Counted from the first letter of the stretch, positions 1-60,878 are shown. The stretch: 64,000 nt of DNA from an uncultured Candidatus Binatia bacterium (GCA_964291295.2 OZ219754.1:2112001-2176000), one strand, 5' to 3'. Translations and numbers: made by a program. Notes: generated by a model from the sequence alone, not told the origin.

Positions 1-654
1 TCTGGAACATTCCAGCAGGTCGAGGGCTCCCGGCCGGAGTTCCAGCACCAGAGGCTGGCGCCTTCCGCGCGAGGCAAGGACGGCAAGCGACCCAGGCCGT
101 TGGGACACCGGCTCGCCCGCTCGGGCGGGCTCGAACAGCGGCCGCACGTCGTACCGGCAGTGGACCAGGAGTGCGCACGGATGGGTGCGGTACCACAGGC
201 CGGCCGACGGTTGCGGACGCGCCATCAGCGCCTTGCGTTCCATGGCCGTGGGCCGAAGGGTTCGGGCTTCCGACAGGGCCAACTCGAGGGCCGCGACGTC
301 GGCCGCCCAGGCCGGGGTCGGCGGTTCCTGGGCGCTTCTTGCCACGAAGTGGTCATGAAAACACTTGGCGTCCGGGTAGCGTTCGTAGGTTTCGGGCGGA
401 CAGGTGGCCGCAAAGTCGCGCAGGAGCGCCTCGAACCCGTGTCCCAGCAGGGTTGCGGTGCGCGCGAATGTCTGGCGGATGCGCTTCATGCGCTTGTTGT
501 AGGAAAACTCCGCCTCCAGTCGCAGCCGCCGCAAGTCCATGCCCCGAAGGGCCGGTTCCAGGGCCGCGCTCTCCAGGTCGCGAGTGCCGAAGATGAAGGC
601 ATGGCTGGTCAGATGACGCAGCAGATTCGTCTGCATGCCGATGAGTCTATCCAT
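1..654 (-). CDS. DUF2063/HvfC-like partner protein of MNIO (partial, runs off the window start)
   Basis: Not in the ORF track. Read manually from ATG 654, overlapping the DUF692 stop: MDRLIGMQTNLLRHL...KRIRQTFARTATLLGHGFEALLRDFAATCPP...WAADVAALELAL..., open to base 1. The pattern and position match MNIO partner proteins. Confidence 0.75.
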   Translation of the reverse strand, partial: MDRLIGMQTNLLRHLTSHAFIFGTRDLESAALEPALRGMDLRRLRLEAEFSYNKRMKRIRQTFARTATLLGHGFEALLRDFAATCPPETYERYPDAKCFHDHFVARSAQEPPTPAWAADVAALELALSEARTLRPTAMERKALMARPQPSAGLWYRTHPCALLVHCRYDVRPLFEPARAGEPVSQRPGSLAVLASRGRRQPLVLELRPGALDLLECSR

Positions 655-1522
655 GGTTCGCAGCCCTCTCTTTCATTCGGGTCTTCCGCACCTGCTGGCG
701 GATGCGCGCCACGTCGGCCAGGAGCTCCTCGCCCTCCTCGACGTCGTTGTCCCGCTCCAGGATCACCGTTCCCGGACGCTGTCGGTCAAGGGCGCTTCCC
801 AACAGGTCCAATGCCTGCTCCGGCACCGGGTGGCTGTGGCTGTCGGCGTGGAACGGCGCGTCGAGGTAGGGCCGGCGGACCAACGGCCCGCCGGCCGCGT
901 GAATCCCGGTCACCACGCCGCCGGGGAGCTGGTCCAGGAACGCCGCCGGATCGACGCCGTGGTTCCTGGAGTTGACGAACAGGTTCTCCACGTCCAGCAA
1001 CATCTTGACGCCGGTTTCGCGGAACAGCAGGTTGAAGAACTCCGCGTCGCTCATCTCGGCGTTCGGGAAGTCGAAGACGTAGGAAATATTCTCGATGGAG
1101 AACGGCACCGGCAGGCGCGTCTGGACCCGCCGGATCTTGGGAATGAGCATGTCCGAGGCGGCGCGGGTCTTGGGTACCGGCAGCAGGTTGGCGAGGTCGA
1201 TGCCCGGTACCTTGGTCCATGCCAGGTGTTCGCTGTAGGAGGGTACCTTGAGATCGTCGATGGCCTCGGCCACGCCGTCCAGATAACGCTCGTCGAGGGG
1301 TGCGTCGGTGCCGATGGAAAGGCCCACCCCGTGCAACACCAGCGGGATCCGGTCCACCAGGTTGCGAATCGCCTTGCGCGTGTATTCGCCGCCCTTGATG
1401 TAGTGGTCCACCGTGATTTCGAGGACATCGAATCGGTGCAGATTGGCCAGCGTCCAACGGGCGATGGGAACGCGAAATCCGATGCCGACGAGAGGGAATG
1501 CTTCCTGCAGTGCCGTGTTCAT
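647..1522 (-). CDS. DUF692 family multinuclear non-heme iron oxidase (MNIO)
   Basis: Motifs HGVGLSIG, YSEHLAW, LLPVP, IENI, LLDVENLFVN, IHAAGG, DSHS, LERD; GGAGG RBS. Confidence 0.95.
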   Translation of the reverse strand: MNTALQEAFPLVGIGFRVPIARWTLANLHRFDVLEITVDHYIKGGEYTRKAIRNLVDRIPLVLHGVGLSIGTDAPLDERYLDGVAEAIDDLKVPSYSEHLAWTKVPGIDLANLLPVPKTRAASDMLIPKIRRVQTRLPVPFSIENISYVFDFPNAEMSDAEFFNLLFRETGVKMLLDVENLFVNSRNHGVDPAAFLDQLPGGVVTGIHAAGGPLVRRPYLDAPFHADSHSHPVPEQALDLLGSALDRQRPGTVILERDNDVEEGEELLADVARIRQQVRKTRMKERAANHG

Positions 1523-1709: not shown

Positions 1710-2720
1710 CTACCGCAGGTCCATGCCCACCACCTTCGCGGGGTTGCGGGTGCAGACGGTGTAGAGTTCGTCCGCGGTCAGGCCGAAGGCTTCCATGTAG
1801 CCCCGGATGAGGCGCATGGCTTCCACGGAGTCGGGGAACAGCGGCTCGCCGGCATCGCTCGACAGGGTGAAGTGCTCCACGCCCACCTCGCGGATGGTGT
1901 TGTACATGATCTGGGGATCGACGCCGAGAAGCGGCGACAGTTCGTCGAAGGTGAAGTTGAACAGCACGCCCAAGGGGGCGAGGGCCTTCATCTGCGCCAC
2001 CGACACGTCGAGAAACGGGCTGTAGGGATGGTCGATGACCAGCCGCCGGAGGCCGGCCTTGTCCGCCGCCTCGGCGATCTTGAAGATCTCCTTGTGGGTG
2101 GCGTGGCCGAAGAACAGTGTGACGTCCCGCTCCACGCACAGGCGGATGATGTCGCGCACCTCGGGCTTGAGTTCGCCCGAGTCGTCGAGATTGTAGTGTC
2201 CGTGCTCCAGGGCCTTCTCCCAGGACAGGGGGCCGATCCAGCCCTGGGCGTTCATGTCGTGCTCGATCAGCTCCCGGCGGCTGCCCACGATGTGCATCGT
2301 GTTGGCATGATTGAACACCGGCAGCCACAACGCGACGACGCCGGCGTCGATGGCCTTCTCGGCGAGCGCGGCGGACACCGGATCGTCATTCCGGCCGCAT
2401 ACGTAGCCGGCAAACAGGGTCACCGGCGCCCGGCTCTCCCGCGCGGCCCACTCGTCGAGTTGCTCCTGCAGCGCGCGGACCGCGGTTCCCGCGCTGCCGA
2501 CGATGGACTTGAACAGGATTCCCTTCATTTCGGCGCGTGATGCCTTCTTCACCAGGTCCAGAGCATCCTGTTGACCGGCGTGGGCGTGGGCGTGGATGTC
2601 GATGGCGTCCTTGACCCGGACATGCCCCGGATGGACCACTCCCGGCTTGTACTGGGTGCGCGCCGCGTAAGAGGTGACGCACCGCTCCCGGGTCGGGGTC
2701 GAGACCACATTCGCGCTCAT
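1710..2720 (-). CDS. Amidohydrolase-fold metal-dependent protein (DUF6282-like)
   Basis: IDIHAH, FGH, IDHP, LSSDAG and CTRNPA motifs; start reassigned to MSANVV (ATG 2720) after a GGAG RBS. Confidence 0.8.
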   Translation of the reverse strand: MSANVVSTPTRERCVTSYAARTQYKPGVVHPGHVRVKDAIDIHAHAHAGQQDALDLVKKASRAEMKGILFKSIVGSAGTAVRALQEQLDEWAARESRAPVTLFAGYVCGRNDDPVSAALAEKAIDAGVVALWLPVFNHANTMHIVGSRRELIEHDMNAQGWIGPLSWEKALEHGHYNLDDSGELKPEVRDIIRLCVERDVTLFFGHATHKEIFKIAEAADKAGLRRLVIDHPYSPFLDVSVAQMKALAPLGVLFNFTFDELSPLLGVDPQIMYNTIREVGVEHFTLSSDAGEPLFPDSVEAMRLIRGYMEAFGLTADELYTVCTRNPAKVVGMDLR

Positions 2721-2846
2721 CGTTCGTCTCCCTTCCGTTCGGGTCGAGGTGCCGTCTGATGTCGGGGCACAGCCCGACAGGGCTTGCCGTACACCACGAT
2801 TCCGATAGATAGTAGTCCGTCGAAACCCGAAACGAAAGAGGAGGGC

Positions 2847-3854
2847 ATGGGGCCTCTCACTCCGCTTCAGGCGTCCGTCGTGCTGGGCCTTGTGCTCGGC
2901 GCCATCTACGGTGTGCTGGCGCAGCGCAGCCGGTTCTGTCTCCGCCGCGGTCTGGTCGGAGACGGGGGCGGATGCCTGCCGGCGTTCGGCGTGTGGATCC
3001 TGGGGCTGGCCTCGGCGATTGCCGGGACCCAGGGTGCGGTGGCCGCGGGATGGCTTTCCTTCGACGCGCACCGGTTCCTCGCTCTTGACCTTCCGGTCGT
3101 TTCGGTCCTCTTGGGCGGAGCGCTGTTCGGCACCGGCATGGTGCTCAGCGGCGGCTGCGCCTCCCGCCTCACGGTTCTCGCCGGCACCGGCAACCTGCGG
3201 GCAGCTCTCGTCCTGGTGGTCTTTGCGGTCGTCGCCTACGCCGCGATGAAAGGTGTGCTGGCGCCGCTGCGCACCACACTCGGCGGGTGGACCGTTGATC
3301 CGGGAGGCAGGGTGGCGTTGACCGCCTTGCCCGGCGGCGCCGTCTGGATCTGGGGCCTGGCGCTCGCGGCCGCGGCCATGGCATGGCGCTCCGGTGCATC
3401 GCCGCGCCACCTGGTGATGGCCGCGGTGATCGGGCTTCTGGTGCCGGCGGGATGGGTCGGCACCGGCCTTGTCCTCCTGGACGATTTCGATCCGGTGCCG
3501 TTGCAGTCGCTGGGATTTACCAGGCCCATGGCCGACACCTTGTTCTGGACCATGGCGGCGACGGCCATTCCCGCGGGGTTCGGTACGGGCCTTGTGGCTG
3601 GCGTGATCGCCGGCAGCGCGGTGGCTGCGGTTTCAGCGGGCGAGTTCCGCTGGAGCAGCCTGGAAGGGCCGCGTCAGACCGGCCGCTACCTTGCGGGCGC
3701 CGCACTGATGGGAACGGGCGGTGTCCTGGCGGGTGGCTGTACGGTGGGGGCCGGATTGTCCGGGATATCGACCGGCAGCATCGCCGCGGTCCTGGCGCTG
3801 GCGGCCATGGCGGTGTCCGCAAGGGTCGTCGGAAGGCTTCTCGCGGCAGAGTGA
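2847..3854 (+). CDS. YeeE/YedE family sulfur-compound transporter
   Basis: RSRFCL, GMVLSGGCAS and LAGGCTVG motifs; multiple TM helices; GAGG RBS before ATG 2847. Confidence 0.9.
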   Translation: MGPLTPLQASVVLGLVLGAIYGVLAQRSRFCLRRGLVGDGGGCLPAFGVWILGLASAIAGTQGAVAAGWLSFDAHRFLALDLPVVSVLLGGALFGTGMVLSGGCASRLTVLAGTGNLRAALVLVVFAVVAYAAMKGVLAPLRTTLGGWTVDPGGRVALTALPGGAVWIWGLALAAAAMAWRSGASPRHLVMAAVIGLLVPAGWVGTGLVLLDDFDPVPLQSLGFTRPMADTLFWTMAATAIPAGFGTGLVAGVIAGSAVAAVSAGEFRWSSLEGPRQTGRYLAGAALMGTGGVLAGGCTVGAGLSGISTGSIAAVLALAAMAVSARVVGRLLAAE

Positions 3855-5182: not shown

Positions 5183-5905
5183 TCACGGACCGGTGACCGG
5201 CCCGGCGAAGTGCAGGGCGAGTGAGGCGATGTCCTCGTCGGACAAGCGTCTGGCGATGGTCTGCATGGCCTGGTGCCGCCGCTTGCCGTGCTTGTACGCT
5301 TGCAAAGTTATCACGAAGTCATGGACCGGCCAACCGATAATGGAGGGTATGCCGTCATCGGCTCCGTCGGTCCGGTGGCAGGTAGTGCATTCGGTGGCGA
5401 GATAGGCGCCGTATTCGGGATCTCCCGGGACTGCGAGAAGGCGCGAGTCGAGGCCGTATTCGGCCGCGGTCAGGGTCGGTTCCGCAGCCCGCAGTCCAGC
5501 CCGGGAGCCGGAGAGCGCGCGCAGCCACGCCACCAGGTCGGCCCGGTCCCCGGCCGCCGCCATGCCGTCATAACTCATGCGTGAGCGCGGCACCATCACC
5601 CGAGGGTTGGCCAGAAAGGCGTTCAGCGTTGCCTCGCTCCAGACCAGCCCGCCCGCCCCGGCCTTCTTCATTGCCGAGGAGTAACGGAAGTCCGCGAGCG
5701 AACCGGCGCGGCGCCCGAATACGTCGTTCAGGTGCGGCCCGATCCGGTGCTGCGCGCCCTGGCCGGCCTGATGGCAGCGTCTGCACTCCTGATAGAGGGC
5801 GTTGCCGCGTCGGGCGTCCGCGCCGTGGGCCACGGTGGCTGCGAGAACCGCAAGAAGAGCCAGCACGGGCATTGCGAAGCCCGCGGGTTTCGTGATGCCC
5901 GTCAT
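5183..5905 (-). CDS. soxE: Diheme c-type cytochrome (SoxE-like)
   Basis: Signal peptide; CRRCH and CTTCH heme motifs; cytochrome c2-like GPHLNDVFGR; lies between soxZ and soxF. Confidence 0.75.
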   Translation of the reverse strand: MTGITKPAGFAMPVLALLAVLAATVAHGADARRGNALYQECRRCHQAGQGAQHRIGPHLNDVFGRRAGSLADFRYSSAMKKAGAGGLVWSEATLNAFLANPRVMVPRSRMSYDGMAAAGDRADLVAWLRALSGSRAGLRAAEPTLTAAEYGLDSRLLAVPGDPEYGAYLATECTTCHRTDGADDGIPSIIGWPVHDFVITLQAYKHGKRRHQAMQTIARRLSDEDIASLALHFAGPVTGP

Positions 5906-5927
5906 CGGGCGCCGGTTACCGGGAAGG

Positions 5928-6257
5928 TCACGAGCGGACCTCGATGCGTCTGCGGATGCGGTATGTCGAGCCGTCGTCATCCGTCCATTCGAACTCCAGT
6001 TCGCCGGACTCCTGGACGGCCATCTCGAACTGGATGTAGGGATCGGCGGACACCGCCGGCTCGAGGTCCACGGCGAGGACCGTCTCGCCGTTGTAACGGG
6101 CCACGAACCGGTTGACGATCTGGCGGGGGATTCGTTTCCCGTCCCGGCCGAGCCGCAGCCCGGTGTGCATCGGGTGGGTGATTCGCGTCTTTACGGTGAA
6201 CGCGACGCCCGCGGCCACCGATCGCGGCAGCTTGATGCGCGGCTTGGGTTTCAGCAT
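5928..6257 (-). CDS. soxZ: Sulfur carrier SoxZ
   Basis: ITHPMHTGLR...GKRIPR, VSADPY, WTDDDG. Confidence 0.92.
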   Translation of the reverse strand: MLKPKPRIKLPRSVAAGVAFTVKTRITHPMHTGLRLGRDGKRIPRQIVNRFVARYNGETVLAVDLEPAVSADPYIQFEMAVQESGELEFEWTDDDGSTYRIRRRIEVRS

Positions 6258-50717: not shown

Positions 50718-52505
50718 CTACCTGCGGCCGCCGAAGGAGCCGCGCAACTCGCCGTTCTTCTTGTCCTTGGACGTGATGTCGAACACGCCGCCCACCTCTT
50801 CGGCGTCCGGCCCGAAGAAATGGCCGCTGTACTCCCTCACCTCGTACAGGCTGCCGTCCACGCTCGTGGCCAGCTTCAATGCAGTACGATGGCGGGCCTG
50901 ATAGCCAGCCAGAAATCCCGGTGTATCGTAGCCGGCGCCTTCGGCGTTGACATTGGTCACTTTGCTGCCCGAGAACCCGTTCCCGTCGATGGTGCCGTGG
51001 AATGTGGCGATAATCCCGTCATATCCGCCTTGCAACAAGAAGTGCGCGCGATAAATATCGGTCTTGATGGTGCTTTTCCCGAAATCCACCGTTGTGGTTG
51101 AGGTTCCGTCAAGACCGGAGATACCTCCTTCGCCTTGAGCGTGCTGTGCGCGGTGTTGCCAAATTGCATTACCCCTGTAGGTGGCACTGCCGAAGCCTGG
51201 CATGTTGGCCGCCGGGGTCATGCCCTCGCCATCGGGCAGCACCGTGACGAATGAGATGCCAAGGTTGGTCCTGCCTGACTTCTGCGTGTGCCACATCCCG
51301 TAGTTCATGTGCTCATAGGGCCTCGCCTCCGGGAAATCCGGCACATCGTAGACGAAAATCTGCCGGTAGGTGAAGTTGTCGGTCCCGCTCGTTCCGGTGC
51401 GCAGAAGATAGATGTCCTTGCTGCCGTTGTTGTAGTAGTAGACGCCCACGCCCGCATTCGCGTCCTTGGTGCCCCCATTGATCCAGTCCCAGGCATTCGT
51501 CTTGTCCAGTTTCTTCGACTCCGGGGTATCAAGAATATGGAACTCCCCCTCCGCCCGCATGACCTTGTAGGTCTTTTCCCCTACCGTGACCGAACCGAAC
51601 GGGTTCTCGACCGTGATCGGGGCGGTCACGTTGATGGGCTGATCGCTGGCGTCCTTCGCCCTGCGGTAGGCCTTCACCCCCTTGGTGTTGCGGACATACT
51701 TGTCCATCAGCCAGAAACGGGACTTCTCCGAGTCGTTGTAGGAACCGACGGGGATGGTCCGTGCATGGATTCCCGTCCGGGAAACCACCTCCGGCTTGTT
51801 TGCCGTTGCCGCCACGTATTGGACGGGTTCCTTTCGGTAATTCCGTGATTTCTCGTCGATGTTGCCGCGCTTGCCGGTCTCGATGGTCTTGCCCCCGGTC
51901 GTGAGCTTGGCATAGGGTGCACCCGCCGTGATGGTCGTGTCGCCGTACCTGTAGGTCATGCCCTCGACACGCCGAACCTCCTTGGCCGCGGCCTCCTTCG
52001 CCATCTTCGCCTTTTCCGCGGCCATCGCCGCCTGAGCCTCGGCCTTCGCCTGCGCCGCCTCGGCTGCGACTTCGGCCTGGGCCGCCACACGCAAGTCGCT
52101 CGTGGCCGCAGCCTTGTCCGACTCCATCTTGGCCTTGTCGTACTCCGCCTTCGCCATGTCCGCCGCCGTCCGGGCCGCATCCGCGTAGCTCTTCGCCGTC
52201 ATCTCCCCCTTGGGAGTGAAAACGGGCACGACACCCAGGATCGCCGCTTCCGCCTCATCCGCCGACGTCCCCGCGTTGTCCGACGCCGTCTTGGCCTTGC
52301 CCGACGCCGCCATCGCCGCCGTCCGGGCCTCCTTGATCGCCGTCTCCACTGCCGTCGGCCCCGCCGGCGGCGGATCCGGGGTCGTCGCCGGGGTCCGGTT
52401 GTTGTTGCTGCTGCCTCCGCATGCCGCCAGCCCGAAGGCCAACACCACCGCGCAGAAGACCGCCGCCAGGTTCCTGTGCATCATCCCGTGCATCATTCCG
52501 TACAT
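50718..52505 (-). CDS. Surface lipoprotein with Ala/Lys stalk and TbpB-like C-terminal beta-barrel
   Basis: Lipobox LAAC-GGS, Ala-rich coiled coil, YGMW, ATYRG, GHFFGPDAEEVGGVF...GSFGG; GAGGAG RBS. Confidence 0.85.
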   Translation of the reverse strand: MYGMMHGMMHRNLAAVFCAVVLAFGLAACGGSSNNNRTPATTPDPPPAGPTAVETAIKEARTAAMAASGKAKTASDNAGTSADEAEAAILGVVPVFTPKGEMTAKSYADAARTAADMAKAEYDKAKMESDKAAATSDLRVAAQAEVAAEAAQAKAEAQAAMAAEKAKMAKEAAAKEVRRVEGMTYRYGDTTITAGAPYAKLTTGGKTIETGKRGNIDEKSRNYRKEPVQYVAATANKPEVVSRTGIHARTIPVGSYNDSEKSRFWLMDKYVRNTKGVKAYRRAKDASDQPINVTAPITVENPFGSVTVGEKTYKVMRAEGEFHILDTPESKKLDKTNAWDWINGGTKDANAGVGVYYYNNGSKDIYLLRTGTSGTDNFTYRQIFVYDVPDFPEARPYEHMNYGMWHTQKSGRTNLGISFVTVLPDGEGMTPAANMPGFGSATYRGNAIWQHRAQHAQGEGGISGLDGTSTTTVDFGKSTIKTDIYRAHFLLQGGYDGIIATFHGTIDGNGFSGSKVTNVNAEGAGYDTPGFLAGYQARHRTALKLATSVDGSLYEVREYSGHFFGPDAEEVGGVFDITSKDKKNGELRGSFGGRR

Positions 52506-52760
52506 CAATATTCTCCTCGTCCTTTTCGTTCTTCCCACTTCCTCATGGATAAACAGGCTGAATTCCTTCGCAATCGCGCGCCTCACCCCATGAAGTCCAA
52601 GGAACGTCCGAAAAAGGCCATGGCGCGACATTGAGCTACTCGCAACCTGTGGGTTGTATTGATTCAGCCCCAGCAAATCCGGGGTCGTTCGGACCTTCCC
52701 CAAGTCGGATTCGGCCAGCGCCGCTACGTCTACCCCCTCGTGATCCTGTCACGGACACAG

Positions 52761-53717: not shown

Positions 53718-55292
53718 ATGGACCGCGACCCCACGGCACTGCCGCTCGTCTGTCATGAAGGCCACGAAGAACACGCGGCACCGCTGCCCGATGAAGATCA
53801 CGCCATGTGGCGGTCCGAGCGCATCGCGCTGACCTCCGTCGGCATCGACATCGGCTCCTCCACGTCCCACCTGATCTTCTCCCGGCTGGTCCTTCGCCGG
53901 CAGGGCCTCTCGCTGTCGAGCCGTTTCGTGGTGGTGAGCCGGGAGATCGTCTACGAGTCGCCGATCCTGCTGACGCCTTACGTCGACAGGCGGACCATCG
54001 ACACGAGCAAGCTGAACGCGTTCATTCACGGCGCCTACGCCAGCGCCGGCCTCAGCCGGCGGGATGTCGACACGGGTGCCCTGATCGTGACCGGTGAGGC
54101 GGCCAAGAAGAAGAACGCCGAGGCCATCGCGGCCCTGTTCGCCGAGGAGGCGGGCAAGTTCGTGTGCGCCACCGCCGGCCACAATCTCGAGGCGATCCTC
54201 GCCGCCTACGGCTCGGGCGCGGTGGCGGCCTCGATGGGTGACGACGGCGTCGCGTGCATGAACGTGGACGTGGGCGGCGGCACCAGCAAGATCGCCATCA
54301 CCCGGGGCGGACAGGTGGTGGACACGGCGGCCCTGGAGGTGGGCGCCCGGCTGGTGGCCCTGGACGAGGACCGGGCGATCAACCGGCTTGAGGACGCGGG
54401 GGTGCGCATCGGCGAAGCGAGCGGCCTGTCGCTGGCCCTCGGCCAGGTGCTCGGGGAGGCCGACAAGGAACGCATGGCGGCCACGCTGACCGGGTGTCTG
54501 CTGGAGGTGCTCGGGCGCGGGCTGCTGTCGCCGTTGACCCGGGAACTGATGCTCACTCCGGCGCTTTCCTGCCGGGACCCGATTGATTCCATCCAGTTCT
54601 CCGGCGGAGTCTCGGAGTATGTCTACGGCCATGAGACCGCGGACAAGGGCGATCTCGGCAACCATGTCGGCCGCCGGATCCGCGCTGGCGCCGTGGAACT
54701 GGCCACGCGTGAATCATGGGAGTTCAAGGAGCCCGCGGTGCGCATCCGCGCCACGGTCATCGGCGCTTCCCAGTACACCGTGCAGGTGAGCGGCAACACG
54801 ATCTTCCTTTCAGACGAGTCCATGCTGCCGCTGCGGAATCTGCAAGTGGTCACGCCGCACTTCCGCCAGACCGAGCCGCTGACCACGGAGGACGTTCGCC
54901 GTTCCATCGAGAGCGCGCTGCAGCGATTCGACATGACCGAGGGCGACCGTGGCGCGGCGCTGGCGCTTCACTGGGATCTGGGACCTTCCTATCCCCTCAT
55001 CCGCACCCTGGCCGCCGGCGTGGTGGAGGGGATGAAGGAGTATCTTCGCCAGGGACACAAGCTCGTGCTCGTGTTCGATGCCGACATCGCCAGGCTGGTG
55101 GGCCACATCATCGACAAGGAGATCCTTCCGGGCTGCGGTGTCATTTCAATCGACGGCATCGACCTCAAGGACTTCGATTTCATCGACATCGGCGAGGAAT
55201 TGCCGGACGCCCAGGCCGTGCCGGTGGTGATCAAGTCGCTGATCTTCCGTCACGAGGAGTGGGGCCGGGGGCGTCTGTTGGCCAACGACTGA
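53718..55292 (+). CDS. eutA: EutA-like reactivating factor (ASKHA ATPase)
   Basis: SVGIDIGSSTSHLIFS, TGALIVTGEAA, CATAGH.LEA, VDVGGGT, IRATVIGA, VPVVIKSL. Confidence 0.85.
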   Translation: MDRDPTALPLVCHEGHEEHAAPLPDEDHAMWRSERIALTSVGIDIGSSTSHLIFSRLVLRRQGLSLSSRFVVVSREIVYESPILLTPYVDRRTIDTSKLNAFIHGAYASAGLSRRDVDTGALIVTGEAAKKKNAEAIAALFAEEAGKFVCATAGHNLEAILAAYGSGAVAASMGDDGVACMNVDVGGGTSKIAITRGGQVVDTAALEVGARLVALDEDRAINRLEDAGVRIGEASGLSLALGQVLGEADKERMAATLTGCLLEVLGRGLLSPLTRELMLTPALSCRDPIDSIQFSGGVSEYVYGHETADKGDLGNHVGRRIRAGAVELATRESWEFKEPAVRIRATVIGASQYTVQVSGNTIFLSDESMLPLRNLQVVTPHFRQTEPLTTEDVRRSIESALQRFDMTEGDRGAALALHWDLGPSYPLIRTLAAGVVEGMKEYLRQGHKLVLVFDADIARLVGHIIDKEILPGCGVISIDGIDLKDFDFIDIGEELPDAQAVPVVIKSLIFRHEEWGRGRLLAND

Positions 55293-56278
55293 CGGCGGAC
55301 CGCCCCGGGTCGCCCGATACGGCGACCTTTCATTCTCTCCTTCAGCCGCACCGGATGCTCCGGGTGAAGCGTCCGGAAGCCGGCCACCGACAGCCATACC
55401 CGCAGGAGATGACGCCCGGATCCCGCGTCGGCGAATCGGGTGCGCGTGTGCAGGACCACGTGGTTGTTGAAATACTCGATGTCGCCGGGTTGGAGTTCCA
55501 CTGCCGCCGCTGCCGTGTTCGCCACGCTGTTGAAGACTTCCAGTGCGTGTCTCTGCGCTTCGGTCAACTCGGGAACCCCGGCCTGCTTCTGGGCCCGCTT
55601 GATGTGAACCGGAAAGGCGCAGGCGTTGAACACGCCGTCCTGGAAGCCCAGGAAGGGCAGCTGGCTCCATCGGTGGCCGTGGTCCGGGTGCGGATGCTGC
55701 AACGCCACGTGAAATGGCCGGGTCAGGACGTCCAGCACGTCGGGGTGTTGCTTTGCCAGGATGTTGTAGACGGTGGCGGCACTGACGAACCGGCGCGTGC
55801 CGCCCGTGCGGGCGGGGTTCATGCACAGGAAGCCGATGACATCTTCCGGATCGGCGTGAAAGGGGAGCTCGCCGGCTGCGCGAAACCCGACGCGGTCGCG
55901 ATTCTCGGGTTCGGCCCGTACGTGCGCCAGATGGACCCCTCCCGGCTGCTCCACGACGTCGCCGATGTGCCGGCTCAGGGTCGAGAAGGCATGGGCCACC
56001 TCCGACTCGTTCAGGCCGGTCAGCGGCAGACCCCGGAGAATGCGAAAGCCGACGCCCGATTTGAGTTCCCGTGCGGTCGCCGCCATCCGTGAAGTCAGCA
56101 GCGGCCGGTCGAGGCGCTTGCCGCGCCCGTCGTCGGACCTCTCCCGTGCCAACGCCGCCAGCTCCTCCAGTTCGCCGGCGGTGAAATGATGGCACCCGTT
56201 TCCGGACTTCTCGACATCATCCGGACTCCAGGCCGCCGGGTCCACCGCCGGTGCCGATTCCTTTGTTCCGTCATCCAT
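55250..56278 (-). CDS. TauD/TfdA family Fe(II)/2-oxoglutarate dioxygenase
   Basis: FHAD (HxD), GG..FVSA, NNHVVLHTR, RHLLRVWL; AAAGGAG RBS. Alternative GTG 56305 is coupled to the hlyD stop. Confidence 0.9.
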   Translation of the reverse strand: MDDGTKESAPAVDPAAWSPDDVEKSGNGCHHFTAGELEELAALARERSDDGRGKRLDRPLLTSRMAATARELKSGVGFRILRGLPLTGLNESEVAHAFSTLSRHIGDVVEQPGGVHLAHVRAEPENRDRVGFRAAGELPFHADPEDVIGFLCMNPARTGGTRRFVSAATVYNILAKQHPDVLDVLTRPFHVALQHPHPDHGHRWSQLPFLGFQDGVFNACAFPVHIKRAQKQAGVPELTEAQRHALEVFNSVANTAAAAVELQPGDIEYFNNHVVLHTRTRFADAGSGRHLLRVWLSVAGFRTLHPEHPVRLKERMKGRRIGRPGAVRRQSLANRRPRPHSS

Positions 56279-56301
56279 GGCTGTTGCTCCTTTGGGGGGC
56301 G

Positions 56302-57639
56302 TCACTTCTCCCGGAAGGCGTCCTGCCGGTAGCCCCGAAGAGGTTGGAGAAGGTATTCGATGACCCGTTGCGTGCCGAGGATCAGCGCGGCTTCCGCTGC
56401 CATTCCGGGCAACAGCTCGACTCTCCGCCCCTCGATCTCCATATAGTTCTGGTCCAGTTCGATGATCGCCTTGAACACGGGACCGGCCGCTGTGGGCTGC
56501 GATGTGGTTGCCGATGCGTTGCCGGCCGCGGGGTTTTCGGGAACGGGTGTGCCGGCATGCGTGCCCGCGTTCACCGCGTCCTTGCCGATGTGCTTCACGG
56601 TTCCGTCCACGCCGCCGTAACGGCGGAAGTCGAAGGTGGTCACCCTGAGGGTGACCCGCTGGCCGGGCTTCACGAATCCGATGTCGGTATTGGCGACGAA
56701 CGCTTCGACCTGAATACCGGTATTGCGCGGCACGATGACCATGAGCCGGGCGCCGGGCTCCACCATGCCGTTCTCCGTGTGCACGGCGAGGTCCTGGACC
56801 ACGCCGTCGACCGGGGACAACAGGGTATGCCGGGCGCGGAATTCCCGCGCCTGACGGAGATCTTCCCGCAACACGATCATCCGCTCCCGGACCCTTGCCA
56901 GAGCCGACCGAAGTTCACGGTAGAACTCGGCGGTCGCCCGTTCCTTCTGTGCGCGGACCGCCGTCAGGGAGGCCTGGACCTCGGCCAACTCCCGGCGGCG
57001 GAGCGTGATGCCGCCCTCCAGCTCCACCAGCCGTTCCTGCTCCTGGAACAGGGCGAGGCGGGAGGCGTGATCCCGGCGGTAGAGAGTCTCGTGCATGGCG
57101 GTCCGCTCACGCAGGATGGGCAACAGCCTTCCCTGCTTGATGAGCGCGCCTTTGATGGTGTGGAGCCGCGCGCGCCGTTCCGCCAGGATGCCGTCCAGTT
57201 CGTGAAGGTGGGCCCGGTGTGCCGCCACCTGATCCGCCAGGAGCGCTTCGTTGATCGCGACGATCTCCGGCGGAGCGTCGGGGGGTGGATGGAAGGGCCG
57301 GTCCTGGTGCCAGGCCAGCGCGGCTTCGAGACGCGCCGCCTCGACGGACTTGATGCGGAGTTCGGCCGTGAGCTTGGAAATCTCGGCATCCACCAGGGTC
57401 GTGTCGAATTCGATCAGGACCTCGTTCCGCCTTGCGACGCTCCCTTCCTCAACGGCGATGCGCTTGATCTTCCCCTGCTCGAAGGAGCGGATCACCTTGA
57501 CCTGCCCGGTGGGAATGATGCGGCCCGGGGCCATGGCGGACAGTTCGACCTCCGCCACGGACGCCCATGTCAGGGTGGCGATGAGAAAGACGCAAAGCGC
57601 CACGAGCAGGAGGATATCGACACGACGCGGCGTGGTCAT
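56302..57639 (-). CDS. HlyD family type I secretion membrane fusion protein
   Basis: TM anchor, GRIIPTGQVKVI, coiled coil, SPVDGVV, DIGFVKPGQ, LLPGMAAEA..G.QRVIEYLL.P. Confidence 0.95.
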   Translation of the reverse strand: MTTPRRVDILLLVALCVFLIATLTWASVAEVELSAMAPGRIIPTGQVKVIRSFEQGKIKRIAVEEGSVARRNEVLIEFDTTLVDAEISKLTAELRIKSVEAARLEAALAWHQDRPFHPPPDAPPEIVAINEALLADQVAAHRAHLHELDGILAERRARLHTIKGALIKQGRLLPILRERTAMHETLYRRDHASRLALFQEQERLVELEGGITLRRRELAEVQASLTAVRAQKERATAEFYRELRSALARVRERMIVLREDLRQAREFRARHTLLSPVDGVVQDLAVHTENGMVEPGARLMVIVPRNTGIQVEAFVANTDIGFVKPGQRVTLRVTTFDFRRYGGVDGTVKHIGKDAVNAGTHAGTPVPENPAAGNASATTSQPTAAGPVFKAIIELDQNYMEIEGRRVELLPGMAAEAALILGTQRVIEYLLQPLRGYRQDAFREK

Positions 57640-58082
57640 GCCGAATTCCCGGGATTCTCATGCCTCGTGCGGCGGGATCGCACGATCCTTTCGCCGGCCC
57701 ACAGGATCAGGCATGCCACCGCGACAAGGACCATGGCCGTCCGCCACCATGCCAGCAGTCCCCGGGGATCCCAGAGACCGAGCCACATGGCCGCTTCACC
57801 CGCGACGAGAGCGAACAGCATGACGGCCGGGGCGGCGTAGGGTCGCCGTATCTCATCCGTGGAGGCCACAACGCCGAACACGAGGATCGAGAACACCGCG
57901 GCGCCGACCACGGCACCGGAGGGAGAGTCGCCCCGGTACTTCATCAGCCACGCCGTCTGTCCCATCAGCCAGAACGCTCCGGCAACGATGCCATGGCAGA
58001 CGGCGCTCGACACCCTCAGGTACTTGCTGAAACGGTCGTCCCCTTCCCGGTCATGGAAGATGCCCATGAATTCGAATCGCAT
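57636..58082 (-). CDS. Hypothetical 4-TM membrane protein (possible immunity/accessory protein)
   Basis: Four hydrophobic segments; AAAGGAG RBS; ATGA overlap with the hlyD start. Confidence 0.7.
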   Translation of the reverse strand: MRFEFMGIFHDREGDDRFSKYLRVSSAVCHGIVAGAFWLMGQTAWLMKYRGDSPSGAVVGAAVFSILVFGVVASTDEIRRPYAAPAVMLFALVAGEAAMWLGLWDPRGLLAWWRTAMVLVAVACLILWAGERIVRSRRTRHENPGNSA

Positions 58083-58289
58083 CCGTGTCTCCTTTGAAAA
58101 CGTGCCGATGATACGGTGTCGAGCCGGTTGGCCGACGGGGCCTTGCGTGACCCCGTCGGCGTTCCATCCCGAACCCTGTTTCGGCCCGGCAACCGCCGTC
58201 GGGTGACGGCGACCGACCCTGCGGCGCGGCCATGGCCCGGGACATGCCCGTGACCACTTCCCGCGCGCCGAGGGCGCAATCGTGATGCG

Positions 58290-58691
58290 TCATGTCGGGC
58301 CGTTGCAGTTTGGACTCGTCAAGGCCGCCTCCGCCGCACCGGCGACCGCACCGACGACCGCGCCCACGACAACGCCGCCGCCGGTGACGGCGGCTCTGGC
58401 CGCGCCCACGGCGGCACCCACTGCCGCAGCATGGGTCACGTCGTCCACGCACGATTGCTCGTCCTCTTCCTCGGCATCAGCGAGGGCCTCCGGATTGGCC
58501 ACGGCACAGTCCGAACAGTCCGAGCATGTGCAGCTGCAACCGCAGCCACAGTCACCGCACCCGCATCCACAACCGCATCCACACCCGCATCCGCATCCGT
58601 GAATCTCCAGGTCGAGTTCGCCCTCCTGGGCACCGAGCCGCCAAGGGACGGCTGCCGCCGCTTCGTCGATGGCAATGTGATGCTGTTCCAT
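58290..58691 (-). CDS. Cys-rich, glycine-zipper peptide (putative RiPP/bacteriocin precursor), 133 aa
   Basis: AAGGAGG RBS; (GC)7-GDCGCGCSCTCSDCSDC, acidic linker, AVGAAVGA...GAVVGAVAGA; mixed synonymous codons in the GC repeat. Confidence 0.8.
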   Translation of the reverse strand: MEQHHIAIDEAAAAVPWRLGAQEGELDLEIHGCGCGCGCGCGCGCGDCGCGCSCTCSDCSDCAVANPEALADAEEEDEQSCVDDVTHAAAVGAAVGAARAAVTGGGVVVGAVVGAVAGAAEAALTSPNCNGPT

Positions 58692-58982
58692 TACGGTGTT
58701 TCCTCCTTCGTTGGTTGGTTGAGAGTCATTTCGTCGCCCACATACCATGAGTCGGCCTGATGGGCGCGAACTTTAAACATGATTTCACTCAAAGGGCAAA
58801 TTTGTCCGATGCCGGTCCAGGGCCGGCGGTCGCGGAATCGGTGGCCGTTGGCATCGCGAGAGCTTTGCGCCATAATATCGCCCGGTGGAGACCCGGAGCG
58901 TGACGTTCCGGCGGAGTGGTGTCCGGGCCGGAAGCCTTCATCCGACCCCCTTCACCTCGTGCCGGAACGAGAGGAAAGCTGA

Positions 58983-59837
58983 ATGAGGCCGTTCATGGGT
59001 AGCAAGACCGACGAGTTCAGCCAGCGCGCGCCGATCCGGTTGCAGGCCGCACCCCCCAGCCTCGCCCGCCTGGACATGGCCAGACGCGTGGGAAAGAAGA
59101 AGTATGAACGCAAGCTTGCCAAATGGCAGGACCGGCTCCGGGAGGTGTCTCTCGCCTATCGGGCCCAGCAGCGGCGTGCGGTGATCGTGTTCGAGGGGTG
59201 GGACGCCGCGGGCAAGGGCGGCACCATCCGGCGCATGGCGTGGCCGCTGGATCCGCGCGGGCTCAAGGTCTGGCCCATTGCCGCCCCCACCGCGGAAGAG
59301 CAGGGCCAGCACTATCTCTACCGTTTCTGGAAGCGGCTGCCGCGGCCCGGACAGATAGTGATCTTCGACCGCTCATGGTATGGGCGGGTGCTGGTGGAAC
59401 GGGTGGAGGGCTTCGCCAGCACCATCGAGTGGCAGCGCGCCTATGACGAGATCAATGAGTTCGAGCGCATGCTGGACGACGATGGCATCCGGCTCGTCAA
59501 GCTGTTCTTCCACATTACGTCCGAGGAGCAACGGGTGCGGTTTCGCCAGCGCCTGGCCGACCCGCTCAAGCAGTGGAAGCTCTCTCCCGAGGACTTCCGC
59601 AACCGGTCGCGTTGGGGGGAATACGAGGCGGCCATCGAGGAGATGTTCCGCAGGACCTCGACGGTGCCTCAACCGTGGACGGCCGTCCCCGGGAACGACA
59701 AGCGGTACGGCCGCCTTGTGGCCATGAAAGCGGTGGTGAAGCGGTTGACGGACGGCGTCGACACGAAGCCCGACTCCATCGATTCCGATTTCGAGGGCGA
59801 AGCGCGCAAGCTGCTGGACGTCGAAGAAGCGGGATGA
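58983..59837 (+). CDS. ppk2: Polyphosphate kinase 2 family
   Basis: FEGWDAAGKGG, FDRSWYGRVLVERV, KLSPED. Confidence 0.95.
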   Translation: MRPFMGSKTDEFSQRAPIRLQAAPPSLARLDMARRVGKKKYERKLAKWQDRLREVSLAYRAQQRRAVIVFEGWDAAGKGGTIRRMAWPLDPRGLKVWPIAAPTAEEQGQHYLYRFWKRLPRPGQIVIFDRSWYGRVLVERVEGFASTIEWQRAYDEINEFERMLDDDGIRLVKLFFHITSEEQRVRFRQRLADPLKQWKLSPEDFRNRSRWGEYEAAIEEMFRRTSTVPQPWTAVPGNDKRYGRLVAMKAVVKRLTDGVDTKPDSIDSDFEGEARKLLDVEEAG

Positions 59838-59878
59838 GCCGGCCGGGCGTCCGCCGGGCAGGGAGGTTCGACAGGATC

Positions 59879-60532
59879 CTAGTGCGACACCTGGGCAATG
59901 GCCATGGTGATGGACTCTTCGATTTCGGCGATGACGCTGCCGACCTCGCGGCCGATGAGATCCATCATGCGGAGCTGCTCGATGCGGGGGCGGACCCGCT
60001 CCATCTCCCGTTCCGAGAAGATGTCGTTGAGAATGTCGCAGGCGTCCACCAGGCATATCAGGGCGACGTCCCGGGGGTCGGGCATGTCCTCGGACAGCAG
60101 CACGTCCTCCATGCGCAGCTTGACCCCGCGTTCCACGCGCCCGTCGATGGTGGGATAGCGCCGGGAATGGAACACCCACAGGAACTTCTTGTCCCGGGCT
60201 TCGAGGATGCCTGCATCAATGAGGCTTTCCATGGCCCGTTGACGGATGTCGGCGGCCTGTTCCCGTGCCAGCAGTTCCACCCACGCCTTGGTGCCCATCT
60301 CCTCCCCCGAGCGGGCGATTCGGTCCAGGGCTCCGTCCAGCAACGGATTGCCCGTGGGGGTCGCGTCGATCACTTGAAGTTTGTCGGGATCCGTGTCGAT
60401 GCGTTGAGCGAAGGCCAGATCCATCAGCACGGCGCCTGCCAGGATGTGCTCCACCGCCCCGCCCCGGATGGGCAGGAACAGTCCGTCGTCATCCAGCATC
60501 AACAGAAGGATTTCCTGGGTGAATGTCAGCAT
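59879..60532 (-). CDS. GOLPH3/GPP34 family protein
   Basis: EILLLMLDD, AGAVLMDL, TGNPLLD, RRYP. Confidence 0.85.
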   Translation of the reverse strand: MLTFTQEILLLMLDDDGLFLPIRGGAVEHILAGAVLMDLAFAQRIDTDPDKLQVIDATPTGNPLLDGALDRIARSGEEMGTKAWVELLAREQAADIRQRAMESLIDAGILEARDKKFLWVFHSRRYPTIDGRVERGVKLRMEDVLLSEDMPDPRDVALICLVDACDILNDIFSEREMERVRPRIEQLRMMDLIGREVGSVIAEIEESITMAIAQVSH

Positions 60533-60545
60533 GGCGTCCCCGGAC

Positions 60546-60878
60546 CTATTCTGCCGCCAGGGCGGCGTCACGGGTTTCGTGGTATTCGAGCATGTTGAGG
60601 AAGCCGCTGACCTCCATGACCGATTTGCACGATGGCTGCAACGAGCATACCGTCAGCTTGCCGCCTTCCTTCTGGCACTTCTTCGCGCTGGTGAGAATCA
60701 CGCGCAGCCCGGCGCTGCTGATGTACTCCATGTTCTCGCAATCCAGCAGTACGTTATGGTCGCCGCGCTCAATGATTCCGGAGATCCGACTCTCGAGCTC
60801 CGGGCTGGTGAAACCGTCGACGCGTCCGCTCGGTGCCACGACCACCAGCGACCCTCTGCTTTCCTCCTGAATCTCCAT
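60546..60878 (-). CDS. STAS-domain anti-sigma factor antagonist
   Basis: GRVD, YISSAGLRV phosphorylatable motif. Confidence 0.93.
   Translation of the reverse strand: MEIQEESRGSLVVVAPSGRVDGFTSPELESRISGIIERGDHNVLLDCENMEYISSAGLRVILTSAKKCQKEGGKLTVCSLQPSCKSVMEVSGFLNMLEYHETRDAALAAE

Follow-up and report, generated by a model that had tools for sequence, protein, structure and literature searches.

What four co-oriented minus-strand genes for a cysteine-rich peptide, a small membrane protein, a type I secretion adaptor and an Fe(II)/2-oxoglutarate dioxygenase might make together is the question raised by a locus of an uncultured Candidatus Binatia bacterium (GCA_964291295.2; the window analysed comprises 64,000 nucleotides, OZ219754.1:2112001-2176000). 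An initial annotation proposed one block encoding an exported, oxidatively modified peptide. The block is probably one half, contributing precursor and export genes, of a RiPP gene cluster that depends on an MNIO and is split in this genome; MNIO and transporter of this previously undescribed ribosomal-peptide system are encoded 55 kb from the block, at the window start.

The four-gene block

Flanked by the oppositely oriented eutA (53718-55292, plus strand; PF06277, 401 bits) and ppk2 (58983-59837, plus strand; 279 bits) are the precursor gene (58290..58691, 133 aa), tm4 (57636..58082, 148 aa), a gene for a HlyD-family type I secretion periplasmic adaptor (56302..57639) and a gene for a TauD/TfdA-family Fe(II)/2-oxoglutarate dioxygenase (55250..56305), all four on the minus strand and found where the initial annotation had placed them. 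The ATG of the precursor gene follows a AAGGAGGA Shine-Dalgarno sequence. Tight coupling of the last three genes had also been proposed, and both junctions can be read in the sequence: tm4 ends and HlyD begins within ATGA (57636-57639), and HlyD and TauD share GTGA (56302-56305). The second overlap depends on the annotated TauD start; an alternative ATG at 56278, which follows AAAGGAG, is as good or better and is probably the true start, which would leave a 24-nt gap and no overlap. The gap between the precursor gene and tm4 (58083..58289, minus strand) holds a structured intergenic RNA with an MFE of -115.3 kcal/mol (z = -3.5 relative to shuffles) and a 12-bp perfect hairpin; it lacks a U-tract.

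Both HlyD (TIGR01843, 321 bits, cut-off 208.65) and TauD (PF02668, 105 bits, cut-off 27) exceed their profile thresholds. Invariant in 13 aligned TauD sequences are H150, D152, H286 and R298, the first three of which we take to be the HxD...H facial triad; its relatives in the PDB are 7n7v (annotated 'Predicted hydroxylase') and FrbJ.

The precursor peptide and its membrane partner

Residues 33–62 of the precursor (58506..58595, minus strand) form a (Gly-Cys)n/(Ser-Cys)n tract of 14 cysteines, which bears out the poly-(Gly-Cys) peptide first described and is the predicted MNIO substrate region. The cysteines alternate with Gly, Ser, Asp or Thr, with no Lys in the repeat, and the underlying DNA repeats imperfectly with a 6-nt period (7.5 copies, 76% matches). 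Relatives' tracts contain 11–17 Cys (13 of 15 relatives, those parsed whole by script). Preceding the tract is a conserved, acidic N-terminal region of 32 aa (58596..58691, minus strand), the presumed leader or recognition sequence, with a VPW-x-L motif and a terminal ...DLDLE(I/V)HG; W17, L19, L26, L28, E29, H31, G32 and C33 are invariant in all 22 aligned precursors. Hydropathy reveals no hydrophobic segment before residue 91 and no Sec-type stretch in the leader. Following the tract are an acidic linker and a hydrophobic, glycine-zipper-like domain bounded by Cys81 and Cys129 (58305..58451, minus strand; Gly/Ala/Val-rich, hydropathy segment 91–126), which varies between family members. Leader, linker and hydrophobic domain were absent from the initial annotation.

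No Pfam or NCBIfam model matches the precursor above threshold; Bacteriocin_IIc reaches 13.8 bits (cut-off 27.1), and glycine-zipper models are also sub-threshold. The family is present in 26 of 27 other genomes of the genus, with one to three differing copies in each (one in the source genome), and a Shine-Dalgarno sequence stands at every listed copy; given this distribution and the invariant residues, the family is not a product of chance.

The four-TM topology proposed for tm4 is supported by hydropathy and by an AlphaFold model with helices at 19–50, 55–74, 83–100 and 107–142 (mean pLDDT 71.5). The protein belongs to an orphan family, with matches in only 26 representative clusters among 1.84 billion proteins searched. 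A DoxX (BufD-like) identity was rejected, the genome's only DoxX match (PF07681) lying elsewhere and hhalign against 12 DoxX sequences of the genus giving a probability of 0.1%.

Beside tm4 are all 16 precursors with a Cys-bounded Gly/Ala-rich domain, and none of the nine with another or no C-terminal domain. Relatives' tm4 sequences are 25–59% identical to the window copy, compared with 86–88% for EutA, a divergence like that of the C-terminal domains. The hydrophobic domain and tm4 form a matched pair, which would act either as membrane-active effector and self-protection or in membrane anchoring. An immunity role for tm4, as suggested at the outset, is consistent with its pairing with only one C-terminal type; a specific co-variation signal is not seen, since tm4 identity tracks that of the C-terminal domain (Spearman 0.43) no better than that of the leader (0.42).

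A further reading, which refines the preferred one and is compatible with it, takes the product to be a metallophore-toxin chimera, comparable to siderophore-microcins and polymorphic toxin systems, in which the Cys tract would be a metal 'handle', the C-terminal domain a membrane-active toxin and tm4 its cognate immunity protein. The pairing and divergence of tm4 fit such a design, as do the conservation of the precursor N-terminus relative to its variable C-terminal part (mean identity 56% versus 31%), the differing copies per genome, a dedicated type I secretion system and the weak resemblance to Bacteriocin_IIc and glycine-zipper models. The Bacteriocin_IIc score is far under threshold, however, the correlations do not single out the C-terminal domain, no orphan immunity arrays were seen, and a hydrophobic glycine zipper is equally explicable as a membrane anchor; we regard the chimera as possible but rather unlikely. 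Slightly more doubtful again is a new RiPP class in which one ribosomal protein would bear at least a dozen MNIO-made thiooxazoles in succession, a poly-heterocycle metal-binding 'wire' made from (Gly-Cys)n, joined to interchangeable membrane-active effector domains. Its product would leave through a dedicated type I system, with a separate four-helix immunity protein for each type of effector, and would amount to a ribosomally encoded metallophore-toxin chimera that diversifies in the manner of polymorphic toxins.

The MNIO locus and the proposed split cluster

Oxidative modification of the peptide had been linked to the dioxygenase. The central modifying enzyme is predicted not to be TauD but an MNIO (MbnB/TglH/ChrH family; 647..1522, minus strand; PF05114, 249 bits, cut-off 25), the sole member in the source genome, with its partner protein. 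The best NCBIfam matches of the MNIO are BufB (203.7 bits, cut-off 310) and HvfB (187.8 bits, cut-off 360); it is closest to these thiooxazole-forming enzymes but lies under both curated cut-offs, which makes thiooxazole chemistry an extrapolation. The iron ligands given for TglH in PMC10880893 (H71, H107, E151, D184, N187, H216, D229, H231 and E258) align, nine of nine, with H64, H99, E144, D177, N180, H208, D227, H229 and E256 of the MNIO, all invariant in 23 sequences, and the protein is predicted to be a Cys-modifying enzyme.

Overlapping the MNIO stop is the gene of the partner (1..654, minus strand; 261 aa, with its 3' end past the window start). Its AlphaFold model (pLDDT 78) matches TglI (8hi7_A; E 1.8e-6, TM 0.57) and NGO1945/3DEE (E 4.3e-5, TM 0.52/0.65). 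No Pfam family, DUF2063 included, matches the source genome's partner at E <= 0.01, and the copy of one relative (G005) reaches 21.3 bits with DUF2063 (cut-off 27.2).

Directly upstream of the MNIO is an ORF for a DUF6282 (amidohydrolase-like) protein (1710..3410, minus strand; PF19799, 102 bits), which is conserved at this position in type-1 loci only. Its N-terminal part shows little conservation and overlaps a plus-strand ORF; as conservation is confined to the C-terminal ~336 aa, the true gene probably spans about 1710-2720. Its membership in the RiPP system is uncertain. The YcaO cyclodehydratase model (PF02624) has no match in the source genome, and a TOMM or linear azol(in)e peptide identity was rejected on this ground.

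Some contiguous clusters of relatives in the same genus have the order precursor, MNIO, partner, HlyB-type ABC, HlyD, TauD and a short-chain dehydrogenase (SDR). On L060, L061 and L034 the precursor gene directly precedes MNIO–partner–ABC–HlyD–TauD, and the same order recurs on the more distant contig L108 (MNIO 69%, HlyD 54% and TauD 47% identical). The homologue search that had been recommended yields conserved synteny as well as a precursor family widespread in the genus, and the position of the precursor upstream of the MNIO supports the proposed RiPP-type system with this peptide as its precursor. Such adjacency is found in only 4 of 14 contiguous clusters, and most precursor–tm4 cassettes of relatives are far from any MNIO.

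HlyD and TauD, too, belong to the system as first assigned: among 31 TauD loci, 14 fall within the MNIO cluster, a further 15 occupy the eutA site and two are elsewhere, and HlyD is directly upstream of TauD in 29. Seen from the MNIO, the MNIO–partner–ABC–HlyD–TauD run is contiguous at 13 of the 22 loci examined, and HlyD–TauD is absent from the other nine, the source genome's among them. All eight genomes in which both sites could be read have HlyD–TauD at exactly one of them. The SDR gene follows TauD in contiguous clusters and the ABC gene in split ones. The source genome keeps MNIO, partner, ABC exporter and SDR together at one locus, with HlyD–TauD and precursor–tm4 between gpp34/ppk2 and eutA and 55 kb separating precursor from MNIO.

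At the eutA site, HlyD–TauD occurs without precursor–tm4 in 10 of 15 loci, and precursor–tm4 without HlyD–TauD in three. The block is accordingly not the single unit first envisaged but two modules, precursor–tm4 and HlyD–TauD, that occur independently of each other at the gpp34/eutA site in relatives, with no single ancestral operon. All three module combinations at one site, where ppk2 and gpp34 copies vary too, could also mean that the modules arrived separately in a recombination hot spot and are functionally unlinked neighbours. Other genomes, however, have each module joined separately to the same MNIO cluster, and the ATGA overlap joins tm4 to HlyD in the window; we consider chance neighbourhood improbable.

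Distance from the MNIO would also suit an unmodified, metallothionein-like metal binder acting together with tm4 in the membrane while the MNIO serves another substrate: most cassettes do not adjoin an MNIO, and 14 thiols in series would be expected to bind soft metals as they are. Set against this are the precursors directly before the MNIO in four contiguous clusters, the divergent L108 included, and a joint loss. An MNIO is found in 25 and a TauD orthologue in 26 of the 27 other genomes of the genus, and G013 (98% complete) lacks precursor, MNIO and TauD orthologue alike. Nor was any other Cys-rich precursor candidate seen beside the source genome's MNIO, and the conserved non-Sec N-terminal region would be left without a role. 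The metallothionein-like reading is unlikely, though marginally less so than unlinked neighbours.

Export, tailoring and known systems

An HlyB-type ABC exporter and the SDR are encoded just past the window start, at the MNIO locus. The expectation that an ABC protein would act in trans is borne out to this extent, whereas the peptidase-containing type named for it is absent: C39 peptidase (PF03412) has no match in the source genome (99% complete) and the cluster ABC is without an N-terminal C39-like domain, so a PCAT in trans is not the answer. The full-length cluster ABCs of relatives score 17 bits with PF03412 (cut-off 22). An S9 peptidase of type-2 clusters has no orthologue in the source genome either, and together with the lack of a C39-like domain this leaves leader removal unexplained. 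TolC-type matches in the source genome are below the family cut-off (203 versus 225 bits).

Class II microcins and siderophore-microcins use CvaAB/TolC-type export, with a HlyD-type adaptor and an ABC exporter, and double-glycine bacteriocin leaders have a Gly-Gly consensus. A self-contained system of this kind, in which TauD alone would tailor the peptide and a C39-peptidase ABC would act in trans, is suggested by the tight gene spacing and by a Gly-rich peptide that has HlyD and a small membrane protein as neighbours. It is largely refuted by the absence of a C39 peptidase, by a leader that ends in H-G-C rather than Gly-Gly and by HlyD–TauD inside the MNIO cluster at 14 of 31 loci, and we consider it very improbable. 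Shared with class II microcins are the adaptor paired with an ABC exporter, the adjacent small membrane protein and a hydrophobic, Gly/Ala-rich peptide domain flanked by Cys; the present system differs in lacking a C39 domain, a Gly-Gly leader and a significant bacteriocin-model match. Siderophore-microcins carry a metal-chelating siderophore attached to a membrane-active peptide. The idea of such a union may be common to both, although the chelator here would be made by the MNIO from the peptide's own Cys rather than be an attached siderophore.

Gene identities, conservation of the family and of catalytic residues, the layout of relatives' clusters and co-occurrence are observed here; the use of this precursor by the MNIO in the source genome, the chemistry, the export route and the function are inferred. 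For the split MNIO system, the following pathway can be proposed. The 133-aa precursor would be synthesized in the cytoplasm, where the MNIO–partner pair (window 1-1522) would recognize its conserved 32-aa N-terminal region. The multi-iron MNIO would then oxidize the cysteines in the (Gly-Cys)n/(Ser-Cys)n tract, most likely to 5-thiooxazole heterocycles, judging by its similarity to BufB and HvfB, giving up to 14 metal-binding units. TauD and the cluster SDR may carry out further oxidative tailoring, and export would proceed by type I secretion through the cluster's HlyB-type ABC, the block's HlyD and a TolC-like channel from another locus. A role in metal binding, antagonism or both may be proposed for the product.

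The combination had been thought to match no named class. It is better described as a divergent relative of the RiPPs made by an MNIO with a DUF2063 partner (bufferins, oxazolin and fontiphorin). Captophorins, as outlined by Gadgil et al. 2026 (PMC13097082) and also treated in the preprint of Leprevost et al. (10.1101/2024.03.18.585515), are RiPPs with an MNIO and a DUF2063/RRE partner: bufferins, oxazolin (HvfA), fontiphorin and gonophorin. Captophorins count as thiooxazole metallophores of the MNIO-PME1 kind, marked by 5-thiooxazole formation on Cys and by Cu binding. We regard the present system as a divergent, captophorin-like MNIO RiPP with predicted export by type I secretion. Common to both are an MNIO with an adjacent partner of the same fold, BufB and HvfB as top-scoring NCBIfam models, and a large, protein-like ribosomal precursor that is rich in Cys and has recurring Cys motifs, Gly after Cys and a flanking Cys pair that could form a disulfide; FonB-type MNIOs are described as favouring a Cys-Gly dyad (PMC13097082).

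The differences lie in precursor, export and gene content. The Gly-Cys/Ser-Cys dipeptide repeat without Lys falls outside the DUF2282, Lys-Cys 5-mer and Cys-Lys precursor groups described in PMC13097082, the C-terminal domain is polymorphic, and the MNIO is under both equivalog cut-offs. Bufferins have a Sec signal peptide and the present precursor has none, its export being predicted to use the dedicated ABC/HlyD type I system and not Sec. TauD and SDR genes are part of the present cluster, the membrane protein tm4 is not DoxX, and the cluster is split in the source genome.

With TglHI/MbnBC the system shares all nine TglH iron ligands and a partner model whose best structural match is TglI. 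Their precursors are unrelated to the present one, and the similarity of the MNIO to TglH (E 5e-16) and MbnB (E 7e-6) is low compared with that to 3bww (E 3e-33).

The four-gene block and its precursor family

Spanning positions 55250–58691 of the window are four co-oriented open reading frames on the minus strand, with EutA and PPK2 on either side, as the initial annotation had said. The first gene encodes the precursor (58290–58691, minus strand; 133 residues), whose ATG start is preceded by AAGGAGGA. The precursor is composed of an acidic N-terminal region of 32 residues (the presumed leader), a 30-residue tract in which 14 cysteines alternate mostly with glycine and then with serine, aspartate or threonine, an acidic linker, and a Gly/Ala/Val-rich hydrophobic stretch with a cysteine at both ends (Cys81–Cys129). 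Below it lie the genes for the four-helix membrane protein tm4 (57636–58082, minus strand; 148 residues), the type I secretion adaptor HlyD (56302–57639, minus strand; TIGR01843, 321 bits against a cut-off of 208.65) and a TauD/TfdA dioxygenase (55250–56305, minus strand; PF02668, 105 bits). The ATGA and GTGA overlaps claimed for these genes are both present in the sequence, and an alternative TauD start, ATG at 56278, has its own AAAGGAG.

One precursor copy is found in the window's genome. Among 60 relatives searched (E ≤ 0.01), precursor matches occur in 26 of 27 same-genus genomes, often in two or three copies, in none of five genomes of a second family of the order and in one of 28 of a third, the last being weak (E 0.006) and carrying an in-frame stop. 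A Shine–Dalgarno sequence stands at every copy listed. Invariant in a 22-member alignment are W17, L19, L26, L28, E29, H31, G32, C33, G34 and C35, and following this core are (Cys-Gly)n, (Cys-Ser)n, an Asp/Glu/Ser-rich linker and a C-terminal domain, of which there are several unrelated types. With residues 1–45 as query, only 15 matches were obtained from 5.8 billion proteins (E ≤ 0.001), none with a Pfam domain, 'hypothetical protein' being the sole source name. Related loci are labelled as MAGs of Candidatus Binatia, 'Deltaproteobacteria' or 'Thermodesulfobacteriota'.

A cluster divided between two chromosomal sites

Exactly one MNIO, an iron enzyme of the MbnB/TglH/ChrH family, is encoded in this genome (window 647–1522, 249 bits). 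Overlapping its stop is the gene for a 261-residue partner protein, which continues past the window start; right after it, just outside the window, begins an orthologue of a HlyB-type exporter (ABC), 77% identical to that of the related genome G005, with a conserved short-chain dehydrogenase (SDR) gene 3′ of it. A look for another precursor adjoining this MNIO gave only two short open reading frames, neither a Gly-Cys repeat. A long DUF6282 frame (1710–3410, minus strand) overlaps a plus-strand frame (2784–3854; 356 residues, rich in Gly/Ala membrane segments) that adjoins genes for FCSD (3883–5169) and a dihaem cytochrome c (5183–5980); the actual DUF6282 gene probably encodes only about 336 residues.

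In G005 (locus L034), genes for the precursor, an S9 prolyl-oligopeptidase-family protein, MNIO (PF05114, 241 bits), partner (262 residues, weak DUF2063 match), ABC (HlyB type, with a sub-threshold C39-like N-terminal domain), HlyD and TauD follow one another in that order on the same strand. The series MNIO–partner–ABC–HlyD–TauD is contiguous at 13 of 22 MNIO loci read, which are of two types: type 1 lies in the chromosomal context FCSD–DUF6282–...–SDR–...–SLT, and type 2 is flanked by a precursor or tm4 gene upstream and by the S9 peptidase gene downstream. The remaining nine, that of this genome included, comprise MNIO–partner–ABC–SDR without HlyD–TauD.

In this genome the missing pair is found at the gpp34/eutA interval (the eutA site), which holds the four-gene block. 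In all eight genomes with both sites read, HlyD–TauD occupies exactly one of them: the eutA site in this genome, G002, G020, G027 and G006, and the MNIO locus in G025, G014 and G004. A TauD profile scan over species-representative genomes returned 31 loci: the MNIO cluster accounts for 14 of them, the eutA site for 15 and other places for two, and in 29 HlyD directly precedes TauD. The precursor–tm4 pair is present at only five of the 15 eutA-site loci, and occurs without HlyD–TauD at three further loci. As module combinations vary in this way across loci, the four-gene block is a juxtaposition of two modules, each belonging to the MNIO system, and is not an ancestral operon. The system is a clear case of a biosynthetic cluster with its parts redistributed in the chromosome, and neighbourhood-limited genome mining centred on one half would probably miss the other. 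The gpp34/eutA interval is itself variable (window 55250–60571; L079–L092 and L096), with combinations of precursor–tm4, HlyD–TauD, a second gpp34 and ppk2, the last whole or as fragments.

Within the genus, MNIO was detected in 25 of 27 other genomes (missed in G013, 98% complete, and G018, 76% complete) and a TauD orthologue of at least 56% identity in 26 of 27, G013 having only a 32% paralogue. G013 thus has neither precursor, MNIO nor TauD orthologue; kin not being independent, this joint absence serves as a consistency check and not as a statistic. Beyond the genus, none of 300 sampled genomes of the phylum contains a TauD orthologue at E ≤ 1e-50. On a contig labelled Alphaproteobacteria (L108), the order precursor–S9–MNIO–partner–ABC–HlyD–TauD is kept at much lower identities (MNIO 69%, HlyD 54%, TauD 47%), so the association of precursor and MNIO cluster survives considerable divergence; the L108 precursor has the same leader ending and an even longer Gly-Cys tract. 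The more distant MNIO loci L151 (60% identity) and L153 (55%) have neither HlyD nor TauD, and no (Gly-Cys)n gene precedes MNIO there. About 6 kb from the L153 MNIO, in an Alphaproteobacteria-labelled MAG, is a 535-codon open frame (L153:13188–14792, minus strand) made up of Gly/Ser/Ile/Phe repeats, the last part being a 5-mer that contains Cys-Gly and recurs about 15 times; the frame may encode a further Cys-repeat substrate or be an artefact of antisense reading.

Besides its complete cluster, G005 has a truncated one (L034:10670–15609; MNIO, partner, and fragments of ABC and HlyD). Genes for a DDE transposase and a DruA-like protein lie between the two, which suggests that type 2 clusters are mobile.

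Likely chemistry, export and relation to known systems

MNIO enzymes are among the largest and least explored peptide-modifying enzyme families. For the present MNIO, the NCBIfam models of BufB, which matures bufferins (203.7 bits), and of HvfB (187.8 bits) score highest, both under their curated cut-offs (310 and 360, respectively), with ApyH, ChrH and MbnB lower; its closest PDB sequence is 3BWW. PMC10880893 gives TglH nine iron ligands, each of which falls on a residue that is invariant in this MNIO lineage. The AlphaFold model of the partner (pLDDT 78) has structural matches in TglI and in 3DEE, a PME1 protein from Neisseria. A complex of MNIO, partner and precursor residues 1–50 was predicted with a score of 0.78 and a control with MNIO replaced with 0.65, a difference that counts neither for nor against the complex.

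In the literature, 5-thiooxazole formation on cysteine and copper binding are assigned to enzymes of the BufB/HvfB/FonB type. For bufferin 1 a shift of −10 Da is reported, which can be read as about −4 Da for each converted cysteine, and PMC13097082 gives an absorbance near 305 nm as a mark of conversion. By analogy with this chemistry, and given the best model matches, the tract cysteines would most likely be converted to thiooxazoles; formation of oxazolone–thioamide, or another MNIO reaction, may take place instead. A YcaO/TOMM route is excluded for this genome (PF02624, 0 matches). In TauD, residues H150, D152, H286 and R298 are invariant across 13 orthologues, and its nearest solved relatives are FrbJ and 7n7v, an uncharacterised 'Predicted hydroxylase' for which a literature search found no paper.

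By hydropathy, the precursor lacks the Sec-type hydrophobic N-terminus that bufferins possess. The cluster ABC belongs to the HlyB type (TIGR01846, 520 bits, under the cut-off of 725) and comes in two versions across the genus, with or without a sub-threshold C39-like N-terminal domain of about 150 residues (L052, the MNIO locus of this genome, and L062, L071, L072 and L076–L078). This genome has the short form, beginning directly after the partner stop (L052:11852–11872, just outside the window). The proposal in the initial annotation that a C39/PCAT transporter acts in trans does not hold, there being no C39 peptidase anywhere in this genome. At L059:9287–11878, L064:7309–9150 and L065:8142–9206 the partner frame runs on into the ABC gene (864, 614 and 355 residues, respectively), either as a real fusion, with the partner in place of the C39-like domain, or through an assembly frameshift.

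This genome has no orthologue of the type 2 S9 peptidase at E ≤ 1e-10, and the amidohydrolase-like DUF6282 gene upstream of MNIO is, by position only, a candidate for any leader removal. TolC-like candidates elsewhere in the genome score 203 and 141 bits, below the 225-bit cut-off. At G000:C1:2631631–2634592, the same genome encodes another full set of ABC and HlyD (TIGR01843, 327 bits) for type I secretion.

The system works like the captophorins, the MNIO/partner RiPPs comprising bufferins, oxazolin and fontiphorin, but differs from them in failing the curated MNIO equivalog cut-offs, in a precursor outside their three described groups and in lacking their Sec signal. Its own additions are predicted type I secretion, predicted tailoring by TauD and SDR, the splitting of the cluster, and a polymorphic C-terminal module to which a membrane protein is dedicated. 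A copper-binding RiPP of Microbulbifer is reportedly the subject of one paper (PMC12538549). Literature searches found no paper combining MNIO with a Gly-Cys repeat, a group that could sit in the supplementary motif tables of PMC13097082; among the matches listed, there was nothing relevant for CGCGCGCG with RiPP peptides and no combination of thiooxazole with TauD, type I secretion or an ABC transporter. The thiooxazole-forming MNIOs described are reported to act on Sec-exported substrates with few or Lys-flanked cysteines. The present system would extend the family to a substrate with cysteine at every second residue, to export by a type I system of its own, to additional tailoring by Fe/2OG and dehydrogenase enzymes, and to a modular precursor in which C-terminal domains are exchanged from copy to copy. 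Its genes are a tractable set for asking how many adjacent cysteines one MNIO converts and what the product binds.

The membrane protein tm4 and the precursor C-terminal domain

Consistent with its earlier description as a 4-TM protein, the AlphaFold model of tm4 contains four long helices (mean pLDDT 71.5). It has no significant Pfam or NCBIfam match, and an ESM Atlas search gave a best score of 0.89 and no family. Searched with a tm4 profile, 1.84 billion representatives yielded 26 clusters, 25 of which belong, by score and length, to the same small family or are fragments of it, the exception being a 709-residue protein (E 2.7e-4); by sequence, tm4 is an orphan family. Its assignment as DoxX was ruled out, the only DoxX match of the genome lying elsewhere and hhalign against DoxX of the genus giving a probability of 0.1%.

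The tm4 gene adjoins all 16 precursors with the Cys-bounded Gly/Ala-rich domain and none of the nine with another or no C-terminal domain; at L063 it is present with no detectable precursor. This pairing with one domain type, the variability of the precursor C-termini and the presence of several dissimilar copies in one genome fit an effector/immunity pair formed by the C-terminal domain and tm4. Against this, co-variation of the C-terminal domain with tm4 (Spearman 0.43) is the same as that of the leader with tm4 (0.42) and hence nonspecific, and a role in anchoring to the membrane is just as plausible.

The 207-nt spacer between the precursor and tm4 genes (58083–58289, minus strand) has an unusually strong fold (z = −3.5), including a 12-bp perfect hairpin without a U-tract, and may act in transcript processing or stability to set the precursor:enzyme ratio. 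Elsewhere on this strand, at 50718–52703, a 661-residue frame whose N-terminal half is rich in Ala, Lys and Glu and whose C-terminal domain is a TbpB_B_D β-barrel (PF01298, 63 bits) looks like a surface-lipoprotein-type protein.
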